Shown in pieces: positions 3,644 through 60,046 of a DNA stretch of 64,000 bases (position 1 is its first letter; each line of letters starts with the position of its first letter). The notes below the pieces were generated by a model. That model worked only from the letters and a program-made list of their open reading frames with translations. It searched no databases and had not been told where the DNA came from. Source of the DNA: Scenedesmus sp. PABB004 (taxonomy: Eukaryota); contig CM026547.1 of NCBI GenBank assembly GCA_014905635.1, positions 434,001 to 498,000 of the forward strand. The letters run 5' to 3'. Position numbers and translations under genes: made by a program.

Positions 3644-4891
3644 ATGCTGTCCATGGCGTCCCGCCTGGCGGCGCAGTGGGCCGCTGCGTCGCTGCCGCGG
3701 CGCGCGGTCCCGCTGCGCCAGGTGCCGGCCGAGTTTGGCGCGCCGGCGCTGCTGCCGCCGCCGGCGCCCGCCGGCGCTGGCGCGCCCGCCGGCGCGGGGG
3801 CGGCGGCGCTGGAGCTCGTGCCCCTGACGGCCCTGGCGGCGGAGGCGATGCCCGGCCGGCCGCGCGCCCGCACGCGCGGCGGCGCGGAGCCGCACGGTGG
3901 CCCGCGCCCGGGCGGCGCGCCGCGCCGCGCGTCGGCGCCGGGCGGCGGCCTGCGCGCCGCGTCGTCGCTCGCGGGCGCGGCCGACGCCGCCGCCGCCGAC
4001 GCGGAGCCGCTCGTCGTGTGCTGCGGCTGGCTCGGCGCCAAGAAGCGCCCGTTTGGCAAGTGAGTGGCTCGTGGTCAGCCCCGCCCGGGCTGCCGCACCC
4101 CTCCCGCACCCCTCCCACGCCGCTCGCGCCGCTGCCGGCGCCGCCGCAGGTACAAGGCGCTGTGGCAGTCGCTCGGCGTGCGCCGCGTGCTCTCGGCGCG
4201 GCCGCCGATGGCGGCGATCATGGTCCCCGCCGCGGGGCAGCTCCTCGCGGCGCAGTTCACGCACCAGCTCCTCGACGCCGCCGCGGCGGCGCCGCGCGCG
4301 CCGATCGTGGTCCACCTCTTCAGCGGCGGGGGGTTTATCTTCATGACCTGGGTCTTCCAGCTGCTCGCGGAGCTCGACGGCCCCGCCGCGGCGGACGTGC
4401 GGGCGCGCGTCGCGGGCGTGGTGTTTGACTCGTGCCCCGCCGACGTGTCGGCCGACGTCTCGTCGCGCGCGCTCGTCGCGGCCGCGCTCGGCCGCCCCGC
4501 CGACGGCATCGCGCAGGACTTCCCCTGGCTCGTGCGCCCGACGGCCGCGCTCGTGGGCGGCTACTTCAGGCTGCCCTTTGTGCGTGACGCGCTCGTGGGC
4601 CTCGAGTCGACCTGGGCCGCCGCCGCGCCGCGGTGCGCCAAGCACTTCCTCTACTCTGACGCCGACCCGCTCATCGACCCCGCGGTCGTGGAGAGCTTTG
4701 CCGCGGCGCAGGCGCGCGCGGGCAGCGCGGTGAGCGCGCACAAGTGGGCCGACAGCGGGCACGTCGACCACTACCGCTGCCACCCGGAGGCGTACGCGGA
4801 GCAGCTGCGCGCGTTTGTGCGCCGCGCGGTCGCGCTGCAGCGCGCCGGCAAGGCCGGCGGCGGCGGGGCGACCGGCGAGGAGCTGGTGTGA
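3644..4891 (+). CDS. DUF829 / TMEM53-like alpha/beta-hydrolase-fold protein, 2 exons (3644-4059, 4150-4891), probable transit peptide
   Basis: LVVCCGWLGAKKRPFGK|YKALW, VHLFSGGG, GVVFDSCP, FLYSDADPLI, SGHVDHYRCHPEAY motifs; GTGAGT donor at 4060, CAG acceptor ending 4149. Confidence 0.88.
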
Positions 4892-11243: not shown

Positions 11244-11858
11244 CTAGTTGTACACCCGCGGGCTGAGGCGGCCGTCCGCCGTCGCCGGCGGGTGCTGCGC
11301 CGCGGGCGGCGCCGCTGCGTGGTCAGCCGCCAGCAGGTGGCCGCTCGGCATGGGCAGCAGCTTGGCGGTGAGCGGCGCGAGCGCGGCGGCGTCAGCGGTC
11401 GCCTGCGCGATGCCGGCGGCCACCTCGTCGCAGTAGGTCTGCGCGGCGCGGCGGGGGCGTAAGCGCCGGGCGGCGCGGCGCGGCGCGGCGCGCCCGGCGG
11501 CCAGGCGCGCACACCTCGAGCGCGAGGATGCCACTGCAGGGCGACGGCGGCAGGGCGTGGGTGCGGGCGGCGGGGCGGCGGCGGGGGCGGGCGGGCGGGG
11601 TGAGGAGGCATGCGCGGCGCGGGCCGGCGCCGCGGCCCGCGCAGGCGGCTGCCGCCGCTGCCGCTGCTGCTGGCAGCAGCTCGGGGCCCCGCGCAAGAGG
11701 GGAGCGCGCCACTCACACTGAAGGCGGCGCGGCCAGGCGCGGCAGGCGGCGGCGGTGGCGGCAGCGGCGGGCGGGCGGCGGGCGTCGGCACGGGCGTGGG
11801 CCGCGCGCGGCGCTCAACGCCCCGTTGCGGCGGCGGCAGCGCTGTGCGGCTGTGGCGG

Positions 11859-11897
<39 letters not shown>

Positions 11898-12386
11898 CGT
11901 GCGCGGGCCTCACATGGCTCCTCGATCTGGACGCCGATCTCCTGTTTGGTGGCGGCGCAGCCGTCGGCGCGGCGGGCGGCGGGGTCAGCGCGAGCGCGGC
12001 CGCGCGCTGCGCTCAGCGCCCGCAAGCGCTGCCGGTGCAGCGGTGCGCTTGCCTCAATGCCAAAGAGCAGGAAGGAGACGACCATCGAGATGGGCACGCT
12101 GTACCAGCCGAGCTCCTGCCAGATGACAAAGGGCAGGCAGGTCAGCCAGAGCACGAGGAAGCGACCCGTGTGGCGAGTGTACGACACCGGGATGGGCGTC
12201 GTCAATATCTTCTCGCAACTCCCTAAGCTCTCCTGCGCGCCGCCGGGCCGCGGGGCGGCGCGTCGCCGTCGGCGCCGCCGCCCGCCCGCCCGCGCCGCGC
12301 GTCACCGCGCCCGGCTCTCTGCTGCTGCTCTCTGCTGCTGGACCGGGCTGCTGGGCCGGGCTGCCGCCGCAGCAGCAGCAGCAGCC

Positions 12387-14601: not shown

Positions 14602-15387
14602 TCACGTGTGCAGCGCCGTGTACGTCAGGACCCACGTCAGCTGCGGGAGCGCGTGCGGCGGCCGTCGGCGGGCGGGGGGGGGGGGGGGAGGGCGCCGGGG
14701 CGATCCCGGACGGCGAGGGGCGCGCGGGGCGCGCCGCTGCCGCGGGGCGCGCCGCTGCCGCGGGGGCGCCGCTGCCGCAGTGCGCACCAGGAAGCTCGGG
14801 ATGCAGCTCGGCATGCCCTCGCCGCAGAGGTCACCGTGGCCGCCAAACTCCTCCTCGTCCACGCTGCGGCGCGCGGCATGCGGCGCGCGGCATGCGGCGC
14901 TCAGCCCCCGCGCCGCCGCCGCCGCCGCCGCTGCCGCTGCCCCCGTCGAGGCGGCAGGCGGGCCGCCGCGCACCCCAGGACGCTCTTGTAGGCCGCCACC
15001 GTCAGCAGGATGTTGAACACTACAAACCTGCGGGGTTGAAAGACGTGCTCAGGGCACGCCGAACCCGCCGCGGCCGCCGCTGCCGCGCGCGCGCCGCGCC
15101 CGCTGCTCACGAGATGAACCCGGGCAGGCCGGTCAGCTGGAACACGCCCCACACGAGGCCGAGCGCGATGCCGAGGATCTGCCGCCACCAGAAGATGACG
15201 TCCAGCAGCTCGTCCTGCGAGCGCGGGCAGCGCGGGCGGCGGCTGCGGTTGGCCGCCGCCGCGCCCGCCCGCCGCCCCCGGCGCGCGCAGCGGCGCCGCG
15301 CCGCACCTTCTCCCACTTGGCGGCGTCGCGCTGGCGCATCTTGGCCAGGGCGTCCCCCAGCCTCCGCGCGCGGCCGGCCTCCGCCAT
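14602..15387 (-). CDS. RAB5IF: Rab5-interacting protein family (RAB5IF/OPTI, EMC6-like) membrane protein, 5 exons
   Basis: WEK|DELLDVIFWWRQILGIALGLVWG..LTG, VDEEEFGG..L..EG, FL|LTWVLTYT. Confidence 0.9.
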
Positions 15388-19007: not shown

Positions 19008-21719
19008 ATGCGTGTCGCCGTTGTGCTCCTGGCCCTCCTGGCCGTGGCCCACGCCGATGTTGCCGGTGCGCGCGCGCGGGCCCGGGGCGGCGGCCGGTGG
19101 CGGCCAGCGGGCCGTCGGCGCGGCGGGCGGCGCGCAGCGCGCGGCGCAGGCAGCGCCGGCGCCGGAGTGCCTGGGTCAGCGCCATGGCCCGCCCAGACGC
19201 CAGCGCAGCAGTCTGGCGGGCTGCAAGCCGGCGGCTGCCCGTCGGGAGGTCCTGGGCGTCCCCTGGGCGCCCCCTGCGCGGCCCGGCGGCGCGAGCCGCC
19301 GGTGCAGCGCGCCGGGGCAGCAGCCCGGGCAGGGCACGCGCGCGGTGACATCGGCCGCAGCGCGAGCTGCGACACTGGCGCGCGCCGGCGGAGCGCGGAA
19401 GCCAGCGACGGGGCGCGGCGGCGCAGAACGCCGCAGCCAGGCAGCACCAGCAGCAGCACCGGCCGGCCGGCGGGCCAGGCAGCATGCTGCGAGGCGGCCA
19501 GAGAGCCAGAAGCCGCAGCGGGCCGGCATCGCTGCGGTGGCATGGCGGGGGCGGGATGGACTGACGTTTTTTTGCCAGGGCGCTGGCCTTGAGCGCCTGC
19601 GGCCGCGCCGCGCAGCCGCCGACGCTGTCGCCGCTGCCGCTGCGCAGGCCGCACCCTCCAGGGCGCCGGCAAGGGCGAGGCCGTGCAGAGCGTGATCGAC
19701 GCCAAGACCAAGTTCATCAACAGCCTGCTGGCCGCCAAGACCGCCGGCAAGGGCGCCACCGCTGCGTCCACCGCGACCAAGGCCAACCCCAGCGCGCCCC
19801 CGACCGTGAAGGCCGAGGCGCCCGCCGCCAAGACCCTGAGCCTGCCCACCTTCACCAAGCCCACCATCACGGTGCCCACCCTCTCGGTGCCCACCGTCTC
19901 CGTGCCCACCGTGAGCGTGGCTGCCGCCGCCAAGCCCGCGGTCGCCGCGGCGACCGCCGACACCGGCAAGGGCGCCAAGACCCTGTCCATCCCGACCATC
20001 TCTCTGGGCAAGGGCCGCAAGCTCCAGGGCACCGGCAAGGGCGAGGCCGTGCAGAGCGTGATCACCGCCAAGACCACCTTCATCAACAGCCTGCTGGCCG
20101 CCAAGACCGCTGGCAAGGGCGCCGCCGCTGCGTCCACTGCGACCAAGGCCAACCCCAGCGCGCCCCCGACCGTGGCCGCCGAGGCGCCCGCCGCCAAGAC
20201 CCTGAGCCTGCCCACCTTCACCAAGCCCAGCATCGACATCAGCAGCATCTTTGGCAAGGGCGCCGCCGCCTCCGCGGTGAGCACCAAGTCTGCCGACAGC
20301 GGCAAGGGCTTCAGCATCAGCATCACCAAGGGCGCCGCGTCCGCTGAGGCCAAGGCCAACCCCAGCGCGCCCCCGACCGTGAAGGCCGAGGCGCCCGCCG
20401 CCAAGACCCTGAGCCTGCCCACCTTCACCAAGCCCACCATCACGGTGCCCACCCTCTCGGTGCCCACCGTCTCCGTGCCCACCGTGAGCGTGGCTGCCGC
20501 CGCCAAGCCCGCGGTCGCCGCGGCGACCGCCGACACCGGCAAGGGCGCCAAGACCCTGTCCATCCCGACCATCTCTCTGGGCAAGGGCCGCAAGCTCCAG
20601 GGCACCGGCAAGGGCGAGGCCGTGCAGAGCGTGATCACCGCCAAGACCACCTTCATCAACAGCCTGCTGGCCGCCAAGACCGCTGGCAAGGGCGCCGCCG
20701 CTGCGTCCACTGCGACCAAGGCCAACCCCAGCGCGCCCCCGACCGTGGCCGCCGAGGCGCCCGCCGCCAAGACCCTGAGCCTGCCCACCTTCACCAAGCC
20801 CAGCATCGACATCAGCAGCATCTTTGGCAAGGGCGCCGCCGCCTCCGCGGTGAGCACCAAGTCTGCCGACAGCGGCAAGGGCTTCAGCATCAGCATCACC
20901 AAGGGCGCCGCGTCCGCTGAGGCCAAGGCCAACCCCAGCGCGCCCCCGACCGTGAAGGCCGAGGCGCCCGCCGCCAAGACCCTGAGCCTGCCCACCTTCA
21001 CCAAGCCCACCATCACGGTGCCCACCCTCTCGGTGCCCACCGTCTCCGTGCCCACCGTGAGCGTGGCTGCCGCCGCCAAGCCCGCGGTCGCCGCGGCGAC
21101 CGCCGACACCGGCAAGGGCGCCAAGACCCTGTCCATCCCGACCATCTCTCTGGGCAAGGGCCGCAAGCTCCAGGGCACCGGCAAGGGTGAGGCCGTGCAG
21201 AGCGTGATCACCGCCAAGACCACCTTCATCAACAGCCTGCTGGCCGCCAAGACCGCTGGCAAGGGCGCCGCCGCTGCGTCCACTGCGACCAAGGCCAACC
21301 CCAGCGCGCCCCCGACCGTGGCCGCCGAGGCTCCCGCCGCCAAGACCCTGAGCCTGCCCACCTTCACCAAGCCCAGCATCGACATCAGCAGCATCTTTGG
21401 CAAGGGCGCCGCCGCCTCCGCGGTGAGCACCAAGTCTGCCGACAGCGGCAAGGGCTTCAGCATCAGCATCACCAAGGGCGCCGCGTCCGCTGAGGCCAAG
21501 GCCAACCCCAGCGCGCCCCCGACCGTGAAGGCCGAGGCGCCCGCCGCCAAGACCCTGAGCCTGCCCACCTTCACCAAGCCCACCATCACGGTGCCCACCC
21601 TCTCGGTGCCCACCGTCTCCGTGCCCACCGTGAGCGTGGCTGCCGCCGCCAAGCCCGCGGTCGCCACGGCGACCGCCGATGCTGGCGCCAAGACCTTCAG
21701 CCTTGGCAAGGGCCTGTGA
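19008..21719 (+). CDS. Secreted Lys/Thr/Ala/Ser/Pro-rich tandem-repeat protein (709 aa), exons 19008-19065 and 19648-21719
   Basis: Signal peptide MRVAVVLLALLAVAHA; phase-1 GT-AG intron joins in frame; strong codon bias; 5'-UTR intron about 18642-19002. Confidence 0.85.
19648..21700 (+). repeat. Coding tandem repeat, 573-bp (191-aa) period plus a shorter 366-bp first unit
   Basis: gcagagcgtgatc recurs at 19685, 20051, 20624 and 21197; units nearly identical. Confidence 0.95.
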
Positions 21720-25385: not shown

Positions 25386-27420
25386 ATGGCCACGCGCCTC
25401 CAGCGGCCGGCGTGTCCCGGCTGCAGCGCCCCTGCACCAGCAGCAGCCAGCACGCGCCGCAGCCGGCGGCCGCGCGTCGCCGCGATGGCGGCGGCCGGCG
25501 CGGCGCAGCAGCAGCCGGCGGCCGCGCCGCCGGGCGGCGCGCCGCCCGCGCCGACGGCCTTCCTGCGCAAGCACCTGCTCCAGCTCGCGCCCTACACGCC
25601 CATCGAGCCGTTCGAGATCCTCTCGGCGCGCTACGGGCGCGCGCCGGGGGACATCGTGAAGCTCGACGCCAACGAAAACCCCTACGGCCCGCCGCCCGAG
25701 GTGCGCGAGGCGCTCGCGGCGATGCCCTTCCCCCACATCTACCCCGACCCGGAGACGCGCCGCCTGCGCGCCGCGCTCGCGGAGTGGACGGGCGTGCCGA
25801 TGGAGCACCTGCTGGTGCGGCGGCGGGCGCCTGCGCGCGGCGGCGCACGCACGCGGCAGCGGCGCGCGCCGCACACGCGCCGCACACGCGCCCGCACGCG
25901 CCGCCGCGCCCGGCAGCGCCCCCGCGCTGCCCCCACGCCGCCGCCGCCGTTGGCACGGCAGGTCGGCTGCGGCGCGGACGAGCTGATCGACCTGCTGATG
26001 CGCTGCACGCTGGAGCCGGGCGACGCGATCGTGGACTGCCCGCCCACGTTCACGATGTATGCGTTTGACGCCGCCGTCAACGACGCGCGCGTCGTCACCG
26101 TGCCGCGGCTGCCGGGCTTTGCGACCGACGTGGAGGGCATCCGGTGCGCCGCCGCCGGGGGCCGCTGCGCGCTGCCGCGCGCGGGCTGGGAGGCGGCCGC
26201 GGCCCGGGCGCAGCAGGCGCAGCGCGGCGCGCGGCGCGCCCCGGCGGCGGGCCGCGGGCGGCGCGCTGCCGCTCACGCGCCGGGGCTGGCTCTCGCAGGC
26301 GCGCCGTCGCGGAGCACGCGCCCAAGATTGTGTTTCTGACCAGCCCCAACAACCCCGACGGCAGCGTCATCAGCGACGCCGACCTGCGCGCGGGTGCGCA
26401 CGCACACACACACACACGCACGCGCCGCGGCCGGCGGGGCGGCGGCCGCCCGCGCACCGGACGCGGCCGCCCAGCCCGCGGCGGGGACGGGCGCGCCCCC
26501 TTCTCTCTCTCTCTCTCTCTCTCCCCGCCCGCGCGCCGTCGCACACGCCTCACGCACGCGGCCCGCCCGCCTGACCGCCCCGCCGCCGCCCGCCCGCCCG
26601 CCCGCCCCCGCGCAGTGCTGGCGCTGCCGGTGCTGGTCGTGCTGGACGAGGCGTACATCGAGTTTGCGACCGACCTGCCCTCCCGCATGGCCTGGGTCGC
26701 GGAGCACCCCAACCTCGTCGTGCTGCGCACGTTCAGCAAGTGCGCCGCGCTCGCGGGGCTGCGCGTGGGGTACGGCGCGTTCCCGCTGGGAATGATCGAG
26801 TACCTCTGGCGCGCAAAGCAGCCGTACAACGTCTCCGTCGCGGCGGAGGTGACGCGGCGGCGCGGCGCGGCGATGCTGGTCGCGGGCGCGGCGGCGCGGC
26901 GGGCGCGCGCGCGCGCGGCGCTGACCCGCGGCCGCGCGCCGCCGGCGGGCGCGCCGCAGGTCGCGGCGTGCGCGGCGCTGACCAACCAGGGCTACCTGGA
27001 CACGGTGCGCGACGCGCTGCTCGCGGAGCGCGCGCGGCTGTTTGCCGCGCTGAGCGGCGTGCCCTGGCTGGAGCCGTTCCCCTCAAACGCCAACTTCATA
27101 CTCTGCAAGGTCGACCAGGTGCGGCGCCCGGGCGCACGCCCAGGCGGCGCGGGCCGCGTCGGCGCCGTGCCGGCGCCGCGCGCGGTCGACGTCTTGGCCC
27201 CCGGCCGCAGCGGCGCCGCCGCCGCGCGGGCGCCGCCCCGGCCCCGACGCGCCGCGCGGCGCCGCAGGGGCGCGACGCCAAGGAGGTCAAGGACGCGCTC
27301 GCGCGGTCGGGCATCATGGTGCGCCACTACGCCAAGGCCGAGCTCTCGGGCTACATCCGCATCAGCGTGGGCAAGCCGGAGCACACCGACGCGCTGATGG
27401 CGGCGATCAACGCGCTGTGA
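25386..27420 (+). CDS. hisC: Histidinol-phosphate aminotransferase (HisC/HISN6), chloroplast, 6 exons
   Basis: [51 protein letters not shown] (PLP lysine), IRISVG. Confidence 0.96.
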
Positions 27421-27603
27421 GGGGCCGGCGCGGGTGTGTCGCCGCTCATTTGACCTCGGCCCTGACCTGGCGCCGGCCTGGCCGGCGGGCGCGAACGTGC
27501 ACACGTGGCTGCTCGCGCGCGCGCGCATGCGCGGCGGCGCGGGCGGCGGCGTGCGCAGGCGCGCGCGGCAACGGCTCGTCACCGCGACGGCGCCCCCGCG
27601 CGC

Positions 27604-30144
27604 TCACGCGGCGAGGCGCTGCATCAGCGCTGCGTTCGCCGCCAGCATCTGCTCCACCGCCGCCTGCCGCGCCGCCGCGTCGCCGGCCGCCGTCCCCAGC
27701 GCCGCCAGCCCGCCCCCGCCGCGCCAGCCGCCGCTGCCGCGCAGCGACGTGGCAGCCAGGCTGCTGCGCACGCTGCAGCCACCGGCGCTGCTGCCGCCCA
27801 GGCCGTCGCCGCAGCCGGTGCCCCACTGCCGCCGCGCGTGGGGCGCGGCAGCCCAGGGCGGCGCCAGCTCGGCCGCCTCGGCCGCTGCCGCGGCGGCCGC
27901 CTCCGCTGCCGCAGCAGCCTCTGCCTCCGCGGCCGCCGCTTCGGCCTCCGCGCCCGCCGCTTCGGCCAGCGCGGCCGCCTCGGCGCCCGCCGCCGCCTCG
28001 GCGTCCGGCGGCAGGCGCTGTCCGCTGCCCCAGCCGCAGATGGCGGCCATGCGGGCGGAGCTGCGCAGCTCGGCAGCCACCAGCGCCTGCGCGGCGCGGG
28101 GGCGGCGCTCGGGCGGCGCCGCGGCGCGCGCCATGCCGCCGCGCGCGGCGCCCGGACCCCACGCGCACCTGCTGGCGCAGCGCCGCCGCGCGCTCCGCGG
28201 GGCTGGTCGCCGCCCAGGCCGCAAACTCCAGCGCCGCCTGCACGTAGCCCTCCACGCCCACGGGGTTGCGCGGCACGACCTCGCGCCGGCTGCCGTCCGG
28301 CAGCACGAGCGCCGCGACGCCGCGGTCGGGCGCGAGGGTGAGGAGGGTGCGGTCAGCAAACACGACGCGCACGCGGCCGTCTGCGTGAGCGATGAAGCGC
28401 CCAACGCCGGGGACGTCCTGCGTCTCCACCTCCTCCGTGCCAGTGCTGCCCGCGCCGGCGCCGGCGCCGGCGGCCCGCAGCGCCAGCGCGCGGCATGCGG
28501 CGGCCGCGGGCGCGCGCCCGCCCGGCGCGGCGGCGGCGCCCGCGGCGGCGTCGAGACGCGCGCACTTCGCCCGCACCATCGCGCTCCTCAGCGCGAGCGC
28601 CTGCGACGCGACCTGGCCGATGGGGAGCTTGACGCCGCCGCGCCCCGCGCCCGCCGACGCCACCGGCAGCTCCGGCAGCGCGCTGGCGGCAAACACGCGG
28701 CTCATCGCGCTCGCGTCGATGGTCCCGTCCAGCAGCCCGAGCGCGTCGCCGCCGCCGCCGCCGCCGCCTTCCGCGGCCGGCCCGCCCACGCCGGCCGCCG
28801 GCGCGCGCGTCTGCAGGTGCGTGACAAACGCGCCGGCCTGGAAGCTGTACAGGCAGGAGTCGTCGGCGTGCAGCCACACCTCCACCTCCTCCACCTCCTG
28901 CGGCGCACGCGCGGCGGCGCGGGTCGCCACGGGCGGGCGGCAACCAACGGCGCCGCAGCTGCCGGCAACTGAGCCGGTGCGCAGCGCTGCCGCCGCCGCC
29001 GCGGGCGCACCCGCACGAAGATGGTGGTCGCTTCGCGCGTCCACACCATCTGCAGCAGCTCGTCCGACGGCGGCAGCAGCGACGGCTCAAACCACCAGCC
29101 GCGCCCCAAGCCCGCACTGCCGCCGCCCGCGGAAGAGGGCCGCTGCCCCAGCGCCTGCGCCAGCGCAGCGGCGACGCGGCCGCCGGCGGCGGGCCCCGGC
29201 GCCGGCGGTGGCTGCTCCGGCGGCAGCCGGCCGCCGAGCTGCCGCCACTGCTGCTGCACGTGCGTGGGCAGCGTCTCCAGCAGCTCGCCGCTGATCGGCA
29301 GCTGCGTGGCGCACTCCGCGGCGCTCATGCCTCCCTCCGGCGCCAGCTCCTGCGCCAGCTGCTGCTCCGGCAGCACCAGCGCGCCGAGCCGCGCGGGCGA
29401 CGACGGCGGGCTGCCGGCGCCCCCGGCGCCGTCGCCCGCGGGCTGCTGCCAGCCGCGGTGCTGGCGCTGCAGCGGGCTGCCGAAGCGCCGCGGGCTGCCG
29501 CCGGCCGCGGCCGTGTCGCCGCGCGGCCAGGCCTGCGCCGCGGGGCCGGCCCCCGGCGCCGCGAGCGCCGCCGCGAGGGCGAGCGGCGCCGCCCAGCGGG
29601 GCGGGAACTGGCTGCGCGAGAAGACCTGCGTGTGCCAGGAGTAGGTGTAGGTGCCCGCGCCCGCGTCGTGGTGGAGCAGCAGCGGGTATGTGACCGCGAA
29701 GCGCAGCCCCGCCTGCTCCAGCACGAGCCGCGCCGCGCCGCAGCTGCTGCGCAGCGCGAGCCGGCAGCCGTCGGGCAGGCGCTCCGCCAGGCCGGCGGCG
29801 AGCGCGGCGCGCGGGCTGCGCGGCCACGTGGCCGCCAGCAGCGGGTAGCCCAGCGTCGCGAGGCCGCCGGCGGCGCGGGCCGCGGCGGCCGCGTGCGCCG
29901 GCAGGCGCGGCACGTCGACGTGGCGGTTCCTGAACTCCAGGAGCTCCACCAGCGCCGGCGCAAAGGCGCTGAGGCAGCAGGCGGACAGCTGCGTCGTGCG
30001 CGTGCGCGGCGGCGCGGCGCCGACGTGCGTGAAGCTGTCCGCGCCCGCGCTGAGCACCAGCAGGCTGTTGTCGTCGTAGAGGGCCTTGACGGCGCCGTCG
30101 ACGGCCACCCAGATGCGCTCCAGGCGCGGCGGCGGCGCCGCCAT
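27604..30144 (-). CDS. C5orf34-like protein (DUF4524/DUF4520-type domains), 3 exons
   Basis: N-terminal DGAVKALYDDNSLLVLS...LLEFRN and C-terminal VPGVGRFIAHADGRVRVVFADRTLLTL resemble metazoan C5orf34. Confidence 0.68.
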
Positions 30145-30764
30145 CGCGCCCGGCGAGCGAGCTCCGCTGCTCGCGCGCGCGCCGCTCAACAACGCGCCGC
30201 CGGGCGGCCCCGCGCCGAGGCGTGGGCAGCGTGACAACGTGCGGGCGGGCTGTTGGCGCTGCGGAGCGCAGGTGCGGGGCGCTCACGGCTCGCCCGGCCG
30301 GTTGCCGCCCCCGCGGCGCCGCCGCCGGGCGCGCCCCGCCAGGTGCTGTCCTCTGCTGCTGGGAGGTGGCGCGTGTGGCGCGGGGGGTGCCATAGCAGAG
30401 GGCCCTGCTCGATGCGCGCTGCCGTTTTCGTCGCCGCAAACCCGCCGGCCGTGACGTCGCCGGCCGGCCGGCGCACGCGCGTGCGTCGGCGTCGCGCCCA
30501 CCCCCACATCCCGCCCGCCCTGCCTGCTGTCCGACCGATCGCCCGCAGCCCTCGCGCGCACGCGCACGCGCCGCCGCTGCCGCCGCCGCCGCCCGACGGC
30601 CGCCACCGCGCCGGCAACCGCTGCAACCACCGCCTCAGGCGTGCGCGGGGCGCGCCGCCGGCGTCGCCGGCCACCGCGCCGCCGCCCGCGCCGCCGCGCG
30701 CCGCCGCCCGCGCCGCCGGCCCGGGCCCACGCGCGCTGCCCTGCGCGCGCGCAGGCCACGCGCG

Positions 30765-36241: not shown

Positions 36242-36625
36242 CCGCCGCCGGACGCGCCGCGCGCCGCGCTGCGCCTGCTGCGCCCAGGCCGCGGCCGCCT
36301 CCCAGCCCGCGCGCGGCGGCGGCGGCGCACCGGATGCCCTCCACGTCGGTCGCAAAGCCCGGCAGCCGCGGCACGGTGACGACGCGCGCGTCGTTGACGG
36401 CGGCGTCAAACGCGTACATCGTGAACGTGGGCGGGCAGTCCACGATCGCGTCGCCCGGCTCCAGCGTGCAGCGCATCAGCAGGTCGATCAGCTCGTCCGC
36501 GCCGCAGCCGACCTGCCGTGGCAACGGCAGCGGTAGATGTGGGGGAAGGGCATCGCCGCGAGCGCCTCGCGCACCTCGGGCGGCGGGCTGTACGGATTTT
36601 CGTTGGCGTCGAGCTTCACTACGTC
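36242..36625 (-). pseudogene. Inverted partial copy of hisC (source 25650-26249, with ~200-bp internal deletion)
   Basis: [29 protein letters not shown] and [15 protein letters not shown]...VEGIR, plus intron sequence. Confidence 0.93.
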
Positions 36626-36627
36626 AG

Positions 36628-37360
36628 CCGTCTCGGAGCTGACGTACGCGTCCGCGGCCATGCCGACCTTGGGGCCCGCGCCGACATAGTCGGACCTGCA
36701 GGGCAGGCATGGCCAGGCGGCGCGGGGTCGGTCGCGCGTGCCGCGGCGGCGGTGCGCGTGCAGGGCTGGCCCGCCAGCGCTCCCCGGCGCGCGTGCAGCC
36801 CTCGGCGCCGGCGGCCGGCCGCCGGACGCGTGCGGCCTCCTGTGCACGCGCGGGCGGGGCGCCGCCGCGGCGCACCGCGGTGTCGCGCAGGCGGCGCGCG
36901 AGCTCCTCCGCGCTCGGCGGCGCGCCGCCGGGGGCGTCGACCAGGCCCGTCAGGTGGCGGACGTCGGTGGAGCCCGGCACGCGCGTCACGGTCTCGCCCT
37001 GGCTCACCGTGTCCATGGCGCCGCCCTGCGCGCGCGCGGCGGGCGGCGGCGGAGCGGCCAGCGGTCGGCGGGCTGGGCCGCCGCCGCTGCCGGCGGCGGC
37101 GGCGGCAGCGGGCGCGCGCCTGGTTGACCAGCACCGGCATCGTGGTGACGATGCTGCTGCCGAGGTTGACCGCCGGCATCTTGTACGCCGCCGCGAGGCC
37201 GCCCTGCGGCACGCGCGCGGCCGCGCGCCGCACAGCGTGCGCGGCGGGGCGTCAGACAGCGGGGGCGGTGCGCGCGGGCGCGAGGCGACACGCGCGCGCA
37301 CACGCGTGTGTGTGCGCGGCGTGGCACAGGCACGCGGCGGCGCGGCCGCACCTGGATGAG
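36628..37360 (-). pseudogene. Inverted partial copy of the HSP20-like gene (source about 31494-32453, one exon deleted), fused to the hisC fragment
   Basis: YKMPAVNLGSSIVTTMPVLVNQ, GGAMDTVSQGETVTRVPGSTDVRHLTGLV and SDYVGAGPKVGM exons with their introns. Confidence 0.93.
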
Positions 37361-37989: not shown

Positions 37990-40900
37990 ATGCAGCAGTC
38001 CCTGCGCGGCGCGGCCCGGAGCGCGAGCGCGAGCGCCCCGCGTGCCACGCTCCACGCTGCCCCGCGACTGGCGGGCGCGTCCGCGCGCGGCGCGCGGGCC
38101 ACGCCAGCCCTGGCGCGCCAGGGCGGCCCCCGGAGCCATGCCACAATCGTGAAGGCCGTCGCGGAGGCTGTGGAGAACAGGACCGACAACCAGGGCCTGG
38201 TGCGCGCAATTGGCGCGCCGCGGCGCCAATGGGCGCGGCGTGGCGGCCATGCGGGCCGGCGCGGGGCGCGCGCGCGCCGCTGCCGCTGCCGCCCGGCGCT
38301 GCCCCCCGCCGCCGCCGCGGCCCTCCCGCTCCGGCGCCCGGCCCGCCCTCCCGGCCGCCGGCCGCCCTCGCCGGCCGTATCGCGCCGCGCCGCCCGCCGC
38401 CCACGCTCGCTGCGCCGCCGCGCCAGGCGCTGTACGAGGTCGATCCGCAGCTGCTGCAGCACCGCGACCACCTGGACTACCGGTGGAACCAGTTCTGCGA
38501 CGTCAAGGGCAACATCGAGCGCAACGTCGGCTCGCTCGCCGAGTTTGCCAAGGCGCGGCGCGGCGCGGCCGCGCGCGGGAGCCCTGGCGCGCGCCCGCGC
38601 CGCGCTCCCTCCCGCAGGGCGCCGCGCCGCGCCGCCGCGCGCGCCGCGCCGCCCTCACGCGCGCCCCGCCGCCGCCTTGCCCGCCTCCCGCCCCGCTGTC
38701 CCTCCCGCCTGCTGTCCCGCGCTCAGGGCTATGAGAGCTTTGGCATTGTGCGCAAGGGCAACAAGACCGTCTACCGCGAGTGGGCGCCCGGCGCGCAGGC
38801 CTGCGCCCTCATCGGTGCGGCGCGCGCCCGCCTGCCGGCGCGCGGCGCGGCGCGGCGGCGCGGCGGCGCAGGGCGCGGCGCGGCGCAGGGCGCGGCGCGC
38901 CGGCGCGCGTGGCTCGGGCGCCGCCACCGACGCCGACGCGCGGCGCCGCGTGGGCCGCGCCGCGCAGGCGACTTCAACAACTGGGAGCCCACATGGATGA
39001 ACAAGGATGAGTGGGGCGTGTGGAGCGTGGAGCTGCCCGACGGTGCGCGGCCGCCAGCAGCGGTAGCAGCAGCGCCGGGGGCCGCAGCGCCAGCGGAGAC
39101 AGCGCCAGCGGGACAGCAGCAGCGGCAGCGGCGAGCAGCGGCCCTCGCCGCCGCGCGCGCGCCCCTCACCGCGCCCCGCCCCTCCCTCCGCCGCCGCCGC
39201 CGCGCCGCGCGCGGCGCGCAGGCCCCGACGGCGCGCCCGCGATCCCGCACGGCAGCCGCGTCAAGGTGCGCATGCAGAGCTTTGGCGACTGGTGGGTCGA
39301 CCGCGTGCCCGCGTGGGTGCGCTATGCGACCATCCCAGAGGGCGTCATGGGCGCCAAGTACGATGGCGTGCACTGGGACCCGCCGCGCGGCGAGCGCCAC
39401 GTGTGGTAAGTTGTTGCCCACGCCGCGCGCCGGCAACGCGCGCGCGCCGGCGGCGCCGCGCGCGCGCGCCGTGGACGCGCCGCCTCGCGCGGCGACGGCC
39501 CGCCGCGGCCGCGCCGGCCCACGCACGCGCCCGCGCCGCGCCTTTTGCGCCGCGCCGCGCAGGCGCAACAAGCGCCCCGGGCGGCCGTCCAGCCTGCGCA
39601 TCTACGAGGCCCACGTGGGCATGAGCGGCGAGGACGAGCGCGTGAGCACGTACGCCGAGTTTCGCGACAACGTGCTGCCCCGCATCGCCAAGCAGGGCTA
39701 CACCGCGGTGCAGCTCATGGCCATCCAGGCGCGCGGCTGCGCGGCGGCAGCAGCGGCGCGGCGGCGGCGGCGGCGGGCAGGGCAGGGCAGGGCAGGGCAG
39801 TCGGCGGGGCCCGCGGCTGCCCTCACACTCTCGCCTCCACCCCTCGCCCTCACCCCACACGCCCGCCACCCCTGTCACGCCCACCCACACCCACCCACAC
39901 ACCACACCCACCCACCCACCCACACCGCAGGAGCACGCGTACTATGCGTCGTTCGGGTACCACGTGACCAACCCCTTTGCGCCGAGCAGCCGCAGCGGCA
40001 ACCCGGAGGACCTCAAGTCCCTCGTCGATGCGGCGCACGGGCTGGGCCTCGTGGTGCTGCTCGACGTCGTGCACAGCCACATCAGCTCCAACGCCGACGA
40101 CGGCCTCGCGGGTGCGGCGGCGCTCGCGCTTGCGGGGGCGCGCGCGCGTGTGCTCCTGTCTGCGCGTGCGCGGCGCGCGGCCGCCCGCCGAGCCGCCGCT
40201 GAGCCGCCGAGCCGCCGCCCGCGCGTCCCGCCGCGGCCGGCCGCGCAGGCTTTGACCTCGGCCAGGCCCAGGACTGCAACTACTTCCGCTCCGGCGAGGC
40301 GGGCTACCACAAGCTCTGGGACTCCCGGTGCGCGCGGCGGCGGCGGCGCCGCCCGCCCGCCCGCCGCCGCCCGCCCGCCCGCGCACGCCGCCGCACGCCC
40401 CCGCCCGCTCTCCCGCGCACCCGCCCGCCATCCGCCCCACCCTCCCGCCGCGCCGCGCCGCCGCGCCGCCGCCAGGCTGCTCAACTACGGGCACTGGGAG
40501 GTTCAGCGCTACCTGCTGTCCAACCTGCGCTACTGGCTGGAGGAGTTCCAGTTTGACGGCTTCAGGTGCGGGCTGGCCCCGCCGCGCTGCCCGCCTCTCC
40601 CTCTCCCTCCCTCGCTCCCTCCCTCCCTCTCAGCCTCCCGCCCTGCCTCTCCCTCCCCTGCCTCTCCCTCTCCCTCTCCCTCCCCTGCCGCCTCTCCCTC
40701 CCCGCCGCGCGCCGCCCCCGCTCACCGCCCGGCCGCGCTCCCCTAAACCCTGCAGGTTTGACGGCGTGACGAGCATGCTGTACCACCACCACGGCATCGA
40801 CACCGCCTTCAGCGGCGGCTACCACGAGTACTTTGGCCCCCAGGCGGACGTCGAGGCGGCGGTGTACCTCATGATGGCAAACGCGATGATTCACGACATC

Positions 40901-42895
40901 CTGCCCGACGTGCGGCGCGCGTGACCGCGTGGCTTTGTCCTTGCGTGTGTTTGTGTGTCTGTCTGTCTGTTGTTTGACCGCCGGCGCCGCAGCTGCAGCC
41001 GCGCCCGACGCCGGCTGCGGCTGCGGCGCCGGCGCCGGCGCCGGCGGTGGAGCAAACAGCAGCGGCCGCCGCGGGCGCGCGCGCGCGCGCCCGCCCCACG
41101 CCGCTCATCCCGCCGCGCGCGCGCGCACCCGCCTCACGCCGCCGCGTCGCCGCTGCCGGGCGCGCAGGCGATCACGATCGCGGAGGACGTGAGCGGCATG
41201 CCCTCGCTCTGCCGCCCCGTGGCCGAGGGCGGGCTGGGCTTTGACTACCGCCTCAACATGGCCATCCCTGACACCTGGATCAAGTGCGCGCCTTGCTGAC
41301 GCGCGCCCCGCCGCCGCCGCGCCGTCCGCGCCGCGCCGCACGACCGCCTCCACCTCCCCGCACCCACCACCTCGCGCTTACCACCCCGCCGTCTGCCGTC
41401 CGCGCTCGCCGCGCGCGCCGCGCCCCGCGCCAGGCTGCTGAAGCACGTGCGCGACGAGGACTGGAGCATGATGGAGATCGTCAACGCGCTCTGCAACCGG
41501 CGCTACAGCGAGAAGACCGTCGCCTACGCGGAGAGCCACGACCAGGCGCTGGTGCGGCGCGCGCGGCGCGGCGGCGCCGGCGTGCGGCGCGGCGGCGCCG
41601 GCGTGCTGCGCGGCGGCGGCGCGGCGGCGGCGCGGCGGCGCGCCGGCGGCGCGGTCGCAGCAGGCGGCGCGGCGCGAGGGCCCGGAGGACTGGGGAGAGG
41701 GAGTGCAGCGCGGCCGGCGGCAGCCGGTGACGCGCTGTTCTTTTGGTTCCTGACCAGCGTCGCGTCGCGTGCCGTGTGCCGCGTGCCGCGTCGCGCCGCA
41801 GGTCGGGGACAAGACGATCGCGATGTGGCTGTTTGACGCTGAGATGTATACCAACATGTCGACGCTCAACGAGACCACGCCCGTGGTCGAGCGCGGCATG
41901 GCGCTGCACAAGCTCATCCGCGGCGTGACCATCGCGCTCGGCGGCGAGGCGTGGTGCGCGGCCGCGCGGCGCGCGGCGCGCACACCGCACGCGCACGCAC
42001 GGTTGCGCGCCCCTGGCCCGCTGCACCCAGAACCGCCCCAAAACCACGCTGACCCGCTGAACCCCGCTGAACCCCGCTGAACCCCGCTGAACCCCGCTGA
42101 ACCCCGCTGAACCCCGCTGAACCCCGCTGAACCCCGCTGAACCCCGCAGGCTCAACTTCATGGGCAACGAGTTTGGCCACCCCGAGTGGCTCGACTTCCC
42201 GCGCGAGGGCAACGACTGGAGCCACCAGCACTGCCGGTGCGCGCCCCGGGCGCCCGCCCGCGCGCCGCCGCCGCGCGCCCCGGCCCCCGCCGCCGCCGCG
42301 GCCGCTCGCCCGCCCGCGCTCGACCCCGCCGCGTGCGTGCGCCTCCTCACGCCCTGCGCCCTAAACCGCGCAGGCGCCAGTGGAGCCTGGTCGACACCGA
42401 GCACATGCGGTACTGCCAGCTCAGCGCGTGGGACCGCGCGCTGATGGAGCTCGACGCGGCGACCGGCTTCATGACCAGCCAGCGCCAGTGGGTCACCACG
42501 ATCGACCAGGAGAAGCAGGTGCGGGCGCGCTTCAAACGCGGTTCAAACGCGGTTCAAAACCCGGTTCGAACGCGCGCGCGGCGGAGTGGCGGGGCTGGAG
42601 CCGGGCGCCTGGCGGCCGCCCACACGCGCCGCCCGCGGCGCCGCGGCGTCGTCCGCTGCGCGTGCGCGCAGGTGCTCGTCGCGGAGCGCGGGCCGCTGGT
42701 GTTTGTGTTCAACTTCCACCCCCACGAGGACTACGAGGGGCTCAAGGTCCCCGCGCCCGAGCCGGGTGAGGCCCTGAGCACGCCCAGACGCCCCCGCCGC
42801 GGGGGCAGGCGTCTGCCGCAGCGCGGCCGCGGGCTGGGGGAGGAGGCCCGGCCGCGGCGCGCGCGCCGCGCAGGCGCCGCCCGCGCCGCCGACCG

Positions 42896-42926
<31 letters not shown>

Positions 42927-43569
42927 ACCAGGCAAGTACAAGGTCGCGCTCGACAGCGACGCGTGGCACTTTGGCGGCGCGGGCCGCATCCACTGGGACG
43001 GCGAGCACTTCACCACGCCCGCGGCGGACGAGGAGGGCGGCAAGTTCCACGAGCGCGACCAGTACTTCCAGGCGAGCCAGGGTTTAGGGCCGAGGGGTGT
43101 AGGGCCGAGGGCTCGGCCTGCTCTCGCGCGCCTGCTGGCGCCAGGCCAGAGCAGGTCGTGCGCGCCGCCGCCGCGGCCGCCGCGCTCACGCTCGCGCCGC
43201 CCGCCCGCCGCCGCGCAGGTGCTCGCGCCGTCGCGCACGCTCGTGGGGTACATGCGGGAGGAGGACCAGCAGCAGCAGCAGCAGCAGCACCCCTGGCAGC
43301 AGAGCCGCGGCGGCGGCGGCGGCGAGGGCGGCGGCGGGCGGTTCAGCGCCTACATCCAGAGCCGCGAGGGCTCCGGCGCGGGCGGCGGCGGCAGCGGCGG
43401 CGCGGGCGGCGAGGGCGGGCGCTTTGCCGCGTACATCGCGCAGCGCGAGGGCGGCAACGGCGGCAGCGGCAACGGCAACGGCAACGGCGCGCACGCGAGC
43501 GGCGGCGGCGGCGGCGGCGAGCGCTTCGGCTCCATTATCAAGGAGCGCTACGGCGGCCGCGGGCTGTGA
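37990..43569 (+). CDS. SBE: 1,4-alpha-glucan (starch) branching enzyme, GH13_8, chloroplast, 18 exons
   Basis: [34 protein letters not shown] (nucleophile), IAEDVSG (acid/base), [25 protein letters not shown]; all junctions in frame; TGTAA at 43933. Confidence 0.97.
42055..42149 (+). repeat. 10-bp minisatellite (gaaccccgct)x9 at the 3' end of an SBE intron
   Basis: Perfect tandem array whose last unit ends in the CAG acceptor. Confidence 0.95.
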
Positions 43570-48471: not shown

Positions 48472-51400
48472 ATGATGGCGCGCCCAGCGGTGGCGCTGTG
48501 GCTTTTGTTAGCACTCCTCGCCAGCGGCGGGCGCCCAGCCACGGCATCACGCGGGGCGCGGCTGCTGCTGCAGGAAGCAGCCCTCCCCGAGCCGTCCCAG
48601 CCGCCGCCCGACCCGTGCTTGGGAAAATATTGCGGCCAGGGTAGCTGCTCTGGCGGCACCTGCGTGTGCGCCGACGGCTGGACCGGCGCGGCGTGCGACC
48701 TGCGTGAGTGCCGTGCGCAGCCCTTGGCCAGCGAGGCAGCGTGCCCGACAGCTCACCCGCGACCGCCGCCGCTGCACTTGCCGCAGCCCCAGACCCCTGC
48801 GCGGGCAAGAGCTGCGGTCAGGGCAGCTGCAGCGGCGGCACCTGCGTGTGCTCAGACGGCTGGAGCGGTGCAGCGTGTGAGACAGGTGTGTGCGCGCCAG
48901 CTGCACGTGACAGCCCTGGTCGCGGCCCGCCTGCCTGCCCGCTGATCATTCGCCGCTGCGGCGCGCACGCCGCAGCCCCAGACCCCTGCGCGGGCAAGAG
49001 CTGCGGTCAGGGCAGCTGCAGCGGCGGCACCTGCGTGTGCTCAGACGGCTGGAGCGGTGCAGCGTGTGAGACAGGTGTGTGCGCGCCAGCTGCACGTGAC
49101 AGCCCTGGTCGCGGCCCGCCTGCCTGCCCGCTGATCATTCGCCGCTGCGGCGCGCACGCCGCAGCCCCAGACCCCTGCGCGGGCAAGAGCTGCGGTCAGG
49201 GCAGCTGCAGCGGCGGCACCTGCGTGTGCTCAGACGGCTGGAGCGGTGCAGCGTGTGAAACAGGTGCGTGCGCGCCAGCTGCACGTGACAGCCCTGGTCG
49301 CGGCCCGCCTGCCTGCCCGCTGATCATTCGCCGCTGCGGCGCGCACGCCGCAGCCCCAGACCCCTGCGCGGGCAAGAGCTGCGGTCAGGGCAGCTGCAGC
49401 GGCGGCACCTGCGTGTGCTCAGACGGCTGGAGCGGTGCAGCGTGTGAGACAGGTGTGTGCGCGCCAGCTGCACGTGACAGCCCTGGTCGCGGCCCGCCTG
49501 CCTGCCCGCTGATCATTCGCCGCTGCGGCGCGCACGCCGCAGCCCCAGACCCCTGCGCGGGCAAGAGCTGCGGTCAGGGCAGCTGCAGCGGCGGCACCTG
49601 CGTGTGCTCAGACGGCTGGAGCGGTGCAGCGTGTGAGACAGGTGTGTGCGCGCCAGCTGCACGTGACAGCCCTGGTCGCGGCCCGCCTGCCTGCCCGCTG
49701 ATCATTCGCCGCTGCCACGCGCACGCCGCAGCCCCAGACCCCTGCGCGGGCAAGAGCTGCGGTCAGGGCAGCTGCAGCGGCGGCACCTGCGTGTGCTCAG
49801 ACGGCTGGAGCGGTGCAGCGTGTGAGACAGGTGTGTGCGCGCCAGCTGCACGTGACAGCCCTGGTCGCGGCCCGCCTGCCTGCCCGCTGATCATTCGCCG
49901 CTGCCACGCGCACGCCGCAGCCCCAGACCCCTGCGCGGGCAAGAGCTGCGGTCAGGGCAGCTGCAGCGGCGGCACCTGCGTGTGCTCAGACGGCTGGAGC
50001 GGTGCAGCGTGTGAGACAGGTGTGTGCGCGCCAGCTGCACGTGACAGCCCTGGTCGCGGCCCGCCTGCCTGCCCGCTGATCATTCGCCGCTGCCACGCGC
50101 ACGCCGCAGCCCCAGACCCCTGCGCGGGCAAGAGCTGCGGTCAGGGCAGCTGCAGCGGCGGCACCTGCGTGTGCTCAGACGGCTGGAGCGGTGCAGCATG
50201 CGAGATCCCTCCAGCACAGCTAGCGCAGGCAGCTGGACCGGAGCTGCCGCCTGCAGCCGAGCAGCCAGCACAGGGAGCTGCGCCAGAGCTGCCGCCTGCG
50301 GCCGAGCAGCCAGCGCAGGCGGCCGCATCGCAGCCGCCTCCTGCAGCTGAGCAGCCAGATCCGGCGGCTGCACCATTGCTGCCACCTGCAGCCGAGCAGC
50401 CAACGCCGGTGGCTGCGCCAGTGCTGCCGCCTGCAGCCGAGCAGCCAGCTCCGGCGGCTGCGCCAGAGCTGCAACCTGCAGCCGAGCAGCCAATGCCGGC
50501 GGCTGCACAGGAGCCGTCGCCGGCAGCCGAGCAGCCAATGCCGGCGGCTGCACCGGAGCCGTCGCCGGCAGCCGAGCAGCCAGCGCCGGCGGCTGCACCG
50601 GAGCCGTCACCGGCAGCCGAGCAGCCAATGCCGGCGGCTGCACAGGAGCCGTCGCCGGCAGCCGAGCAGCCAATGCCGGCGGCTGCACCGGAGCCGTCGC
50701 CGGCAGCCGAGCAGCCAGCGCCGGCGGCTGCACCGGAGCCGTCACCGGCAGCCGAGCAGCCAATGCCGGCGGCTGCACAGGAGCCGTCGCCGGCAGCCGA
50801 GCAGCCAATGCCGGCGGCTGCACAGGAGCCGTCGCCGGCAGCCGAGCAGCCAATGCCGGCGGCTGCACCAGAGCCGTCGCCTGCAGCCGAGCCGCCAGCA
50901 CAGCCAGGTGTGCCGCCCACGGCCGATCAGGCAGCGTCCCTGATGTCAACGGGCAGCAGAAGCGAGCCGGCGCAGCAGCCCATGGCCGCCAGGTCGCAGC
51001 ACCCAGTTGAGCCCGTGGCGGGGCCCGCCTCGCCGGCGCCAGCGCCGCAGCCAGAGCCCTTGTCGTCGCCACCACCTGGCAACGAGGCGGCGCTGCAGGC
51101 TGCGGTGGGCAGCATCAGCAGCGGTGCCTCAACCACCTTCACGTGGGCCCTGGAGGTGACCGGAGGCGGCAGCCTTGCCACCGCGCCCGACGCCGACCTG
51201 CCAATCCCGTTCGAAGTGACGGCCACGCGCAGCGAGGGCACGCGCTCAGCGTTTGTCGCCGGCGCCGTGACGGTCCGCAACACAGGCGGCGCCGGAGCCG
51301 ACATCACCGGCGTGTCCGTTGCAGCGGGCGGCGCGCGGCAGGCGCTGAGCGACTGCGCCGCCACGCTCGCCCCGGGCGCGACGACGAGCTGCGCCTTTAA

Positions 51401-54692: not shown

Positions 54693-55792
54693 ATGGAGCT
54701 GGTGGAGTCGATGGCAGCGGGCAGCGGCGCCGGCAGGCGAGCTGGGCGGCCCGCAGCGCGCTCCCGCCGTGCTCCACCGCAGCGCCTGAACTCACGCGCG
54801 CCCTCCGACCGCAGGCTGCAGCGCGCCCGCGTGGCGCTGGTGCCGGCGCAGCACTCGTGGGTCGCGCTGCCGGCGCCGCTGGTGAACAGCCTGCTGGACG
54901 CGGGCCTGGGCCTGCCCCTGGCCCTCCGGCTCACCGTGCAGCAGCCGCCGGGTGCGGGCGCGGGCGGGCCGGCGCGCGAGGGGCGAGCGCGAGGGGCGGC
55001 GGTTGCCGCGCCAGCACAGCGCGCTGCGTGCACGCGGCGCGGCGCGCCGCACGCGCCGCCCCCGCGCGCGCCGCAGGCCTGCGCGGCGGGCCGCCGCAGC
55101 CGCCGCGGTACGTGGCCTGGGCGGGCGCGCTCTCGGCGGTGCCCGGCACGCTGGAGCTGGCGGCGGGCCTCGCGTCGGCGCTGGCGCTGCCCGCGGGCGC
55201 GGGTGCGCGCCGCCGACGCCGACGCCGCGCCCGGCGCGGCGGGCGCGGTGTGCACGCCGGCGGCGCGCATGCGCGTGCGTGCGCTCACGCAGCAGCCGCT
55301 GCGCCGCCCCGGCCGCAGAGGTCGCCGTGGAGGTGCTGCCGCGCCTGGCGGAGGCCGCCGCGGTCGCGGTGGAGCCGGCCGGCCCCGCGGACTGGGAGGT
55401 GGTGGAGCTCAACGCGGGGCTGCTGGAGGATATGCTGCTGGGCCAGGCGCGCGCGCGTCGCCCCGCGCTGCGCCTCGCACGCCAGCTAGCTGCGCACGGG
55501 CGCACGCCCACGCCGCGCGCCGTCGCCGCCGCCGCCGCCGCCGCCGCCGCGCGCCGCCGCCGCCGCAGGCGGGCGTGGTGTGCGTCGGCCAGCCCTTCCC
55601 GATGTGGGCGCGCCAGGCGCGCGTCATGCTGCGCGTCACGGGCGTCACGCACGGCGCGGGGGCGGGCGACGGCGGCGCGCTGGTGATGCGGCACGTCGTG
55701 CGGCTCGCGCAGGGCACAGAGCTGCACGTGGCGCCCAAGCCCCGCGCCGCGCCGGGCGGCAGCCACCAGCAGGCGGGCGCAGCGGTGCCGCC

Positions 55793-55834
<42 letters not shown>

Positions 55835-58800: not shown

Positions 58801-60046
58801 GCGCAGGCCTGCTGCTGTTTGGGCCGCCCGGGTGCGGCAAGACGCACGTCGTCGCCGCTGCGGTCGCTGCCACGGGGGCGCGGCTCATCTCGGTCAAGGT
58901 GCGCCGCCACCCTGCCCGCCCCTCCCCTCCCCCTTCCTCCTCTCTTGTCGCTCCGCGCGCGCGCGCACTCGCGCTGGCCCTGCCCGCCTCCCCCCTGCCC
59001 GCCTCGCCCCTGGCCCGCCTCCGCCTCCGCCTCACCTCGGCCGCCTCACCGCGCCTCCCCTGCCCGCCGCCGGGCGGCGCGCGTCAGGGCCCCGAGCTGC
59101 TGAACAAGTACATCGGCCAGAGCGAGGCCGCGGTGCGCGAGCTCTTCGCCCGCGCGTCCGCCGCCGCGCCGTGCGTCCTCTTCTTCGACGAGTTTGACGC
59201 CATCGCGCCGCCGCGCGGCCACGACTCCACGGGCGTCACCGACCGGTGCGCCGCGCCGCGGCTGTGGCGCCTGCGCGCGCGGGCGGCGCGCGTCGTGGCG
59301 GCGCGGCGCTGACCCCGCCGCCGCGCGCGCAGCGTGGTGAACCAGCTGCTCACGGAGCTGGACGGCGTGGAGGGCCTGAGCGGCGTCGCGGTGCTCGCCG
59401 CCACGAGCCGCCCGGACCTCATCGACGCCGCGCTGCTGCGCCCGGGTGCGCGCACAACGCGCGCGCGCGCGCCGCGCCGCCCGCCGCACTGTGTGCTGTG
59501 CGCGCCGCGCCAGCCTGCCCCTCGCCCACACACGCACACACGCGCGCCGCCGCCGCCGCCTGCGTGTTGCTGTCGACAGGCCGGCTCGACCGCCTGGTCA
59601 TGTGCGGCCTGCCAGACGCGGCGGAGCGGCTCGCCATCCTGCGCGCCGCGGCGCGGCGGCTGCCTCTCGGCGCCGGCGCCGACCTGGCGGCGGTCGCGGC
59701 GGCGACGCCGCACTTCACCGGCGCCGACCTCGCGGCCATCCTCAGCGAGGCGCAGCTGCTGGCGGTGCACGATGCGCTCGACGCCGCAGCGGCGGCGCAG
59801 CAGGCCGCCGGCGGGGGCGGCGACGAGCCCCCGGGCGGCGGCGGCGGCGCCGCCGGCGTGCCCGAGGTGGGCGCGGCCCACCTGCGGCGCGCGCTGTCGC
59901 GCGCGCGGCCGTCGCTGCCCGCGGCGGAGCGCGCGCGGCTGGCGGCCGTGTACGCGCGGTTCCAGGCGGGCCGCGACCCGGGGCTGAGCAACCGGCAGCT
60001 GCTGGCCGAGGAGGCGGCGCACGTGAAGCACGCCACGCTGGCCTAG
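54693..60046 (+). CDS. PEX1: Peroxisome biogenesis AAA ATPase PEX1, about 12 exons
   Basis: N-domain SWVALP and [27 protein letters not shown]2 [56 protein letters not shown]; ends ATLA*. Confidence 0.94.

Follow-up and report, generated by a model that had tools for sequence, protein, structure and literature searches.

A probable one-nucleotide exon in a bestrophin-like gene of a GC-rich green alga

The window and its bestrophin-like gene

The 64-kb stretch of DNA analyzed here (the window) has a GC content of 67–84% per 2 kb, with short GT-AG and GC-AG introns. Genes recognized by Pfam matches of coding-like segments comprise a DUF829 gene (4133–4870, plus strand), two class I/II aminotransferase genes (25518–27450, plus; 36309–37239, minus), a C5orf34-like gene (28187–30162, minus), a gene for a PEX1-type AAA ATPase (54795–60073, plus) and a DUF7507 segment (63751–63918, minus). 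A starch-branching-enzyme gene lies at 38427–43560 on the plus strand. It encodes Alpha-amylase and Alpha-amylase_C domains and has at least 17 exons, one of which is 92–94% identical to Raphidocelis and Tetradesmus proteins. Seventeen exons were mapped on a relative's protein (P0164), with unbroken query coverage and no frameshift.

Repeated sequences occur at several places. At 48780–50205 (plus strand), a 189-nt unit is present 7.5 times with 99% identity; each unit reads as a Cys-rich exon that ends in ..GAGACAG, with GTGTGTGC after it, which suggests exons and introns arrayed in tandem. A 45-nt unit repeated 15 times follows this array at 50217–50897. On the minus strand between 19600 and 21700, coding-like segments recur every ~573 nt (e.g., 19925–20164, 20498–20737 and 21071–21196). 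A Pfam search of these segments gave no match, and they possibly belong to a gene for a repeat-domain protein.

The bestrophin-like gene is on the minus strand. Eight coding pieces (exons A–H) were placed using reading frames together with marker positions, and the model starts at exon A, with further exons expected on its 5′ side. Exon A (13319–13128, 192 nt; VFDAHSWEEH...WLAPD) gives a weak Bestrophin_2 match (E = 0.036) and aligns to two proteins, P0002 and P0003. Exon B (12986–12670, 317 nt) and exon D (12232–12053, 180 nt, ending LLFGIE) match Bestrophin_2 (Pfam PF25539) with E values of 8e-23 (81.8 bits) and 4.8e-22 (79.2 bits), respectively, well over the gathering cutoff of 27 bits. 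Exon D is 95% identical to P0002, a protein assigned to Tetradesmus obliquus by UniRef. Exon C (12590–12443, 148 nt) was placed on the basis of frame and orthologue alignment.

Intron D–E is of the GC-AG type (gag/GCAAGC ... aaacag, where the slash marks the splice junction). It is followed, after aaacag, by exon E (11941–11914, 28 nt), which encodes EIGVQIEEP and the first T of a Phe codon and has the donor cat/GTGAGG. Intron E–F (11913–11718, 196 nt) ends in ccgccttcag. The proposed exon F is a single T at 11717, which would form the center of the TTT (Phe) codon. Intron F–G (11716–11534, 183 nt) starts with GTGAGT and ends in ccctgcag. Exon G (11533–11515, 19 nt) supplies the third T of the Phe codon and encodes GILALE, after which comes gtgtgc. 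The last coding exon, H (11438–11244, 195 nt), encodes TYCDEVAAGIAQATADA...VYN and ends with the stop codon. Intron E–F also carries an uninterrupted run of ~34–37 G residues (11853–11890, minus strand), and a similar G-rich tract is found near 14650–14700. The run could form a G-quadruplex and is a likely trouble spot in sequencing.

The solved structure closest to the Tetradesmus orthologue is 7ek1, a "Bestrophin-like protein" (E = 1e-45). It reads IEEPF, and the motif IEEPF..LAL is common to 7ek1 and the Tetradesmus orthologue. When the T at 11717 is included, the host gene contains the motif G-I-E-E-I-G-x-x-I-E-E-P-F after the last transmembrane segment. We predict that the host gene is a nuclear bestrophin-like (VCCN1/BST-type) anion-channel gene of a green alga with ~80% GC that is related to Scenedesmaceae. 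We take the VCCN1/BST type to be that of bestrophin-like thylakoid anion channels. The likeness consists of the Bestrophin_2 match of the host gene and the match of its orthologue to 7ek1, and the function and localization of the algal protein are predicted from sequence.

The base at 11717 and the reading frame

The end of exon E, the base at 11717 and the start of exon G each lie exactly where the initial annotation had placed them on the minus strand. Exon E closes with GAG GAG CCA T/gtgagg, exon G reads ccctgcag/T GGC ATC CTC GCG CTC GAG, and at 11717 a T is flanked by ccgccttcag and gtgagt. A direct join of exon E to exon G does cause the frameshift that had been described: the phase-1 end of exon E does not fit the phase-2 start of exon G, and one base is missing. 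With the T included, the model comprises 1080 nt (360 codons) with a single terminal stop, and these 1080 nt contain no further frame defect. With the T skipped, the frame stays open for 336 codons when counted from the first base of exon E.

The initial annotation had also proposed that the T, as the center of a Phe codon (TTT), brings back the motif IEEPFGIL. This reading agrees with gap-free orthologue alignments and a near-invariant Phe, as well as with the unique AG/T/GTGAGT site and the lengths of the two introns. With the T, the predicted protein aligns without gaps across the junction (EEPFGILALE to the C terminus) to P0002 (254/331 residues identical), P0003 (257/349), P0001 from a transcriptome assembly (238/348) and P0011 from Scenedesmus sp. 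(231/322). P0003 is a full-length ORF on a Logan contig and is probably transcript-derived. Without the T, the alignments to all four relatives end at residue 288, the Pro. Exon H is conserved with P0002, P0001, P0003 and P0011 only in the T-restored frame, which indicates that selection maintains the frame downstream of the break. No transcript-derived protein from this organism was among the matches of the database protein search, the best of which were 95% identical.

A codon of the form T-N-T encodes Phe only when N is T, and T makes up ~6% of the bases in these introns. The first search found 11 homologues; 4 stop short before the motif, and all 7 that reach it contain EEPFG. A larger set of 156 proteins was gathered after a search listing the best 150 of 2203 matches (E up to 0.001). 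The motif pattern was found in 88 of these, and the residue after EEP is Phe in 83, Met in 3 and Leu in 2; the remaining 68 proteins are incomplete before the motif or do not fit the pattern.

Splice signals around the single base and alternative explanations

The gap of ~380 nt between exons E and G contains three AG-N-GY sites, and the one at 11717 is the only AG-N-GT. The other two, AG-C-GC at 11841 and 11812, were rejected as exons; they would give Ser, and they score −6.5 and −19.6, versus 7.9 for 11717. To estimate chance occurrence, a first-order Markov model with the intron composition of this gene was used to generate 200,000 introns of 368 nt, the site being placed at least 54 nt from the ends. 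AG.GT was present in 5.2% of these random introns, AGTGT in 0.15%, YAGTGTR in 0.09% and CAGTGTGAG in 0.002%; AGTGTRAGT was found in none. In the 64-kb window, the sole match to the 13-mer YYYCAGTGTGAGT, with one mismatch allowed, is the site at 11717 (0.16 expected).

The shorter pattern CAGNGTGAG is enriched in the window, with 8 matches versus 2.8 expected. Six of the other seven matches are CAGCGTGAG, in a coding-looking (Ser-Val-Ser type) or otherwise non-pyrimidine context. These seven and the two other matches to AGNGTGAGT in the window were considered as one-base exons and rejected; they have no upstream pyrimidine tract and are mostly coding-looking. At the site itself, A and T account for 7 of the 12 bases of ttcagtgtgagt; nowhere else in the gap, which has ~13% A+T, are they so densely clustered.

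The introns flanking the T were compared with 19 control introns, comprising 14 well-supported introns from the starch-branching-enzyme gene and 5 other introns of the bestrophin-like gene. The controls are 76–258 nt in length. The two halves of the gap, which the initial annotation had called normal in size, fall inside this range, whereas the unsplit interval of ~380 nt would exceed every control. The GTGAGT that follows the T agrees with GTRAGT at 6/6 canonical positions, a score reached by 1 of the 19 controls. The usual donor is GTGCG[CG] (12/19 controls); the GTGAGG donor of exon E also belongs to the rare GTGAG type. GC-AG introns account for 3 of the 19 well-supported controls (~16%), namely gag/GCAAGC at 12053 on the minus strand and cag/GCGCGC and cag/GCGAGC at 39728 and 43071 on the plus strand. 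The branching-enzyme gene may have two additional GC-AG junctions, both weaker. This type looks unusually frequent, perhaps because the extreme GC content shapes the splice signals.

Scoring with a log-odds matrix derived from these 19 introns gave 0.9 bits for the acceptor before the T (controls, 2.7–15.8) and, with the exon side included, 7.0 bits for the donor after it (controls, 7.6–12.4). Both values are below those of all controls, and this is a real caveat. In part the low scores could not be otherwise, since the signal of either site occupies the "exon side" of its partner; the matrix also favors the local GC-rich consensus.

Taking the frame, the homologues and the splice signals together, we consider it likely that the spliceosome treats the T at 11717 as a genuine one-nucleotide exon, joined to its neighbors in two sequential splicing steps so that the Phe codon is divided T/T/T over exons E, F and G. 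A single base would be too small for exon-definition contacts, and U1 at the donor would overlap the 3′ splice-site factors at the AG. Because exon binding is impossible for one base, we propose that both introns, short at 196 and 183 nt, are recognized by intron definition and removed in turn, as suggested for APC11 (PMC4674806) and in a manner resembling recursive splicing. Removal of intron E–F first would leave ..CCAT-T adjoining the intact GTGAGT donor; removal of intron F–G first would leave ttcag adjoining T-TGGC. The fully canonical GTGAGT, which is rare in this genome, would offset the missing exon context. An RNA structure presenting the T found no support, as the 446-nt region is less stable than its shuffles (z = +2.45), and an Rfam search of the window gave no match. 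Inclusion of the T is presumably constitutive, because skipping yields a frameshifted product without a nearby stop.

Three other explanations were weighed. Under an assembly error, which we regard as unlikely, a T would have been lost from the assembled sequence at the edge of exon E or of exon G that faces the gap, the 380-nt interval would be an ordinary intron and the AG-T-GTGAGT inside it would be coincidental. The weak scores that the local matrix assigns to the sites around the T fit such an error, as does the long G homopolymer in the intron, a type of sequence that troubles some sequencing platforms; however, the missing base would fall outside any long homopolymer, and both the 1080 nt of the gene and the 17 exons mapped in its neighbor are free of other frameshifts. 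A 380-nt intron would be longer than all 19 controls (maximum, 258 nt), and the coincidence needed has an estimated probability of 0.15% for AG-T-GT and below 1 in 200,000 for AGTGTRAGT, while the base must also happen to give Phe. The gene could instead be a pseudogene, or a defective allele, that acquired its frameshift recently; exon E would then be joined directly to exon G, the product would be non-functional and a paralogue would do the work. This too would require AG-T-GTGAGT to be perfectly placed by an improbable coincidence. Every other exon is intact, at 77% identity to the Tetradesmus orthologue, and the exon downstream of the shift is in its proper frame. Open frames say little at 80% GC, where stops are rare (the 64 kb contain 331 ORFs of at least 120 aa), but we give the pseudogene explanation very little credence.

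The T could also be a regulated, alternatively included micro-exon, with skipping acting as an on/off switch through a frameshifted, degraded mRNA. This is a sub-case of the one-base exon and no true alternative to it, and we find it distinctly improbable. The coexistence of VPS55 transcripts with and without a one-base exon in Selaginella, a hornwort and a liverwort, described in the accessible part of the report on that gene (PMC8831610), provides a precedent, and the weak local-matrix scores would permit skipping. Against this, the sequence contains no sign of regulation, and the skipped form has no stop for 336 codons and lacks a motif that 83 of 88 homologues (from the set of 156 proteins) conserve. 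The regulatory switch by skipping suggested in the initial annotation is unsupported: skipping destroys FGILALE and the conserved C-terminal exon over a stretch free of stops, and the outcome would be a defective product and not an alternative C terminus.

Intron layouts in relatives and known one-base exons

Conservation of AG-T-GT in orthologues, which the initial annotation had proposed as a check, was looked for and is absent in the four relatives readable here (P0013, P0016, P0019 and L001). A shared site would have been the strongest form of evidence, although membership of the class does not strictly demand it; its absence argues for a recent origin. In the window, a 48-nt coding stretch (GIE/EIGVQIEEP-T/T/T-GILALE/) is bounded and cut by four introns. 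P0013 and P0016 read through from an upstream intron into RHTG...LLFGIEEIGVQIEEPFGILALE without interruption and continue downstream into GTG...; they share the intron after ALE and have none at GIE/E or at the Phe codon. P0005 and P0008 have the intron after GIE in common with the window, and P0019 has a break after QIE. L001, a 1006-nt contig and the only one recovered from a metagenome scan for orthologous loci, has introns at LLFG/IEE and IEE/PFG and none after ALE. The fragments of P0013, P0016 and P0019 may be of either DNA or partly spliced RNA origin. The protein sequence over this stretch is identical or nearly so between the relatives' fragments and the window. At least four intron layouts occur among close relatives within the 16-codon stretch GIEEIGVQIEEPFGILALE, which suggests that intron turnover at this stretch is unusually fast in these algae.

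The one-base exon looks lineage-specific, because the fragments of close relatives carry other intron layouts. The relatives' fragments with the same protein have no introns inside the 48-nt stretch or single introns elsewhere, and we tentatively suggest, with slightly less than even confidence, that the exon is evolutionarily young. It might have originated by the gain of a second intron one base away from an existing intron. Alternatively, a cryptic AG-T-GT might have been recruited after the loss of one base; for the CYP621A genes of Fusarium, Nelson and Syed suggest, in the part of their report available to us, that a cryptic AG-N-GT can compensate for the loss of one base at an exon edge (PMC12940212). 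Duplication of an intron, or descent from an introner family, is unsupported as the origin; the similarity of the two introns ranks 21 among 210 intron pairs and consists of low-complexity GC-rich matches only, and neither intron is specifically similar to other parts of the window.

A further, apparently recent chlorophyte case would show that one-base exons arise repeatedly. If the exon is young, comparing the alga with its relatives would provide a natural before-and-after series for the shrinking of an exon to a single base, and the case would show how the spliceosome of an extreme-GC genome (usual donor GTGCGS; GC-AG in ~16% of the introns sampled) recognizes such an exon. With a length below 450 nt, the region is a compact substrate for studying how the spliceosome treats an exon too small to bind. 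Automatic annotation of this gene likely truncates or frameshifts the conserved C-terminal part of the channel. Annotators may look for the pattern seen here, a phase-1 to phase-2 clash together with AG-N-GTRAGT in an over-long intron.

The initial annotation had described single-nucleotide exons as rarely documented. They are indeed a rare kind, although less singular than was implied: the precedent it cited, APC11, is correct (PMC4674806), and VPS55 and CYP621A are documented as well. Our literature search found one-base exons documented only for these three and no algal case; the 337 micro-exons of 1–15 nt reported for Chlamydomonas in the accessible text of PMC8831610 possibly include 1-nt members. 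All three known cases are RNA-verified: APC11 (PMC4674806); plant VPS55, which has a conserved GTRAGT donor, in a study that also extended APC11 to most land plants (PMC8831610, from the portion available); and the CYP621A P450 genes of Fusarium (Nelson and Syed, 2026; PMC12940212, likewise in part).

The exon in APC11, like that proposed here, is a one-base coding exon, constitutive in APC11 and presumably so in the alga, that lies between two ordinary short introns (U2-type in APC11), keeps the frame and was missed by annotation (PMC4674806). For Arabidopsis APC11, Guo and Liu (2015) proposed sequential splicing, with intron definition and a recursive step (PMC4674806). In contrast to the algal exon, which is known from its sequence, appears lineage-specific and lies in another gene, that of APC11 was verified by cDNA and reporter assays and is kept across land plants. 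The exon in VPS55 was likewise missed by annotations, and the donor after its single base is GTRAGT, compared with GTGAGT in the alga (PMC8831610, accessible text). It differs in being conserved from bryophytes to flowering plants, alternative in some lineages and of consequence for the N terminus, according to the same portion of that report, whereas the algal exon sits in a conserved motif near the C terminus.

The CYP621A genes, as far as the available text of PMC12940212 describes them, share with the alga a phase-1/phase-2 clash, one base missing in a conserved motif, an AG-N-GT in an intron of about twice the usual length and a single base that forms the middle of a codon. According to the same text, their base is a G (AG/G/GT), is conserved in 20–24 orthologues and is confirmed by SRA reads (PMC12940212). 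The algal base is a T, seen at the DNA level, and none of the four relatives readable here has an orthologue with the same site.

Recursive splice sites (ratchet points, AG/GT) serve the stepwise removal of very long animal introns and leave nothing in the mRNA. They resemble the algal site in that one interval is removed stepwise through an internal, juxtaposed acceptor and donor, and they have been discussed in connection with APC11 (PMC4674806). A zero-length ratchet point at 11717 was rejected, as one base lies between the AG and the GT and is needed for the frame. The algal site differs from ratchet points in retaining this base and in having both parts shorter than 200 nt. By the logic of its sequence, the algal one-base exon is a probable further case of the rare class known from APC11, VPS55 and CYP621A.
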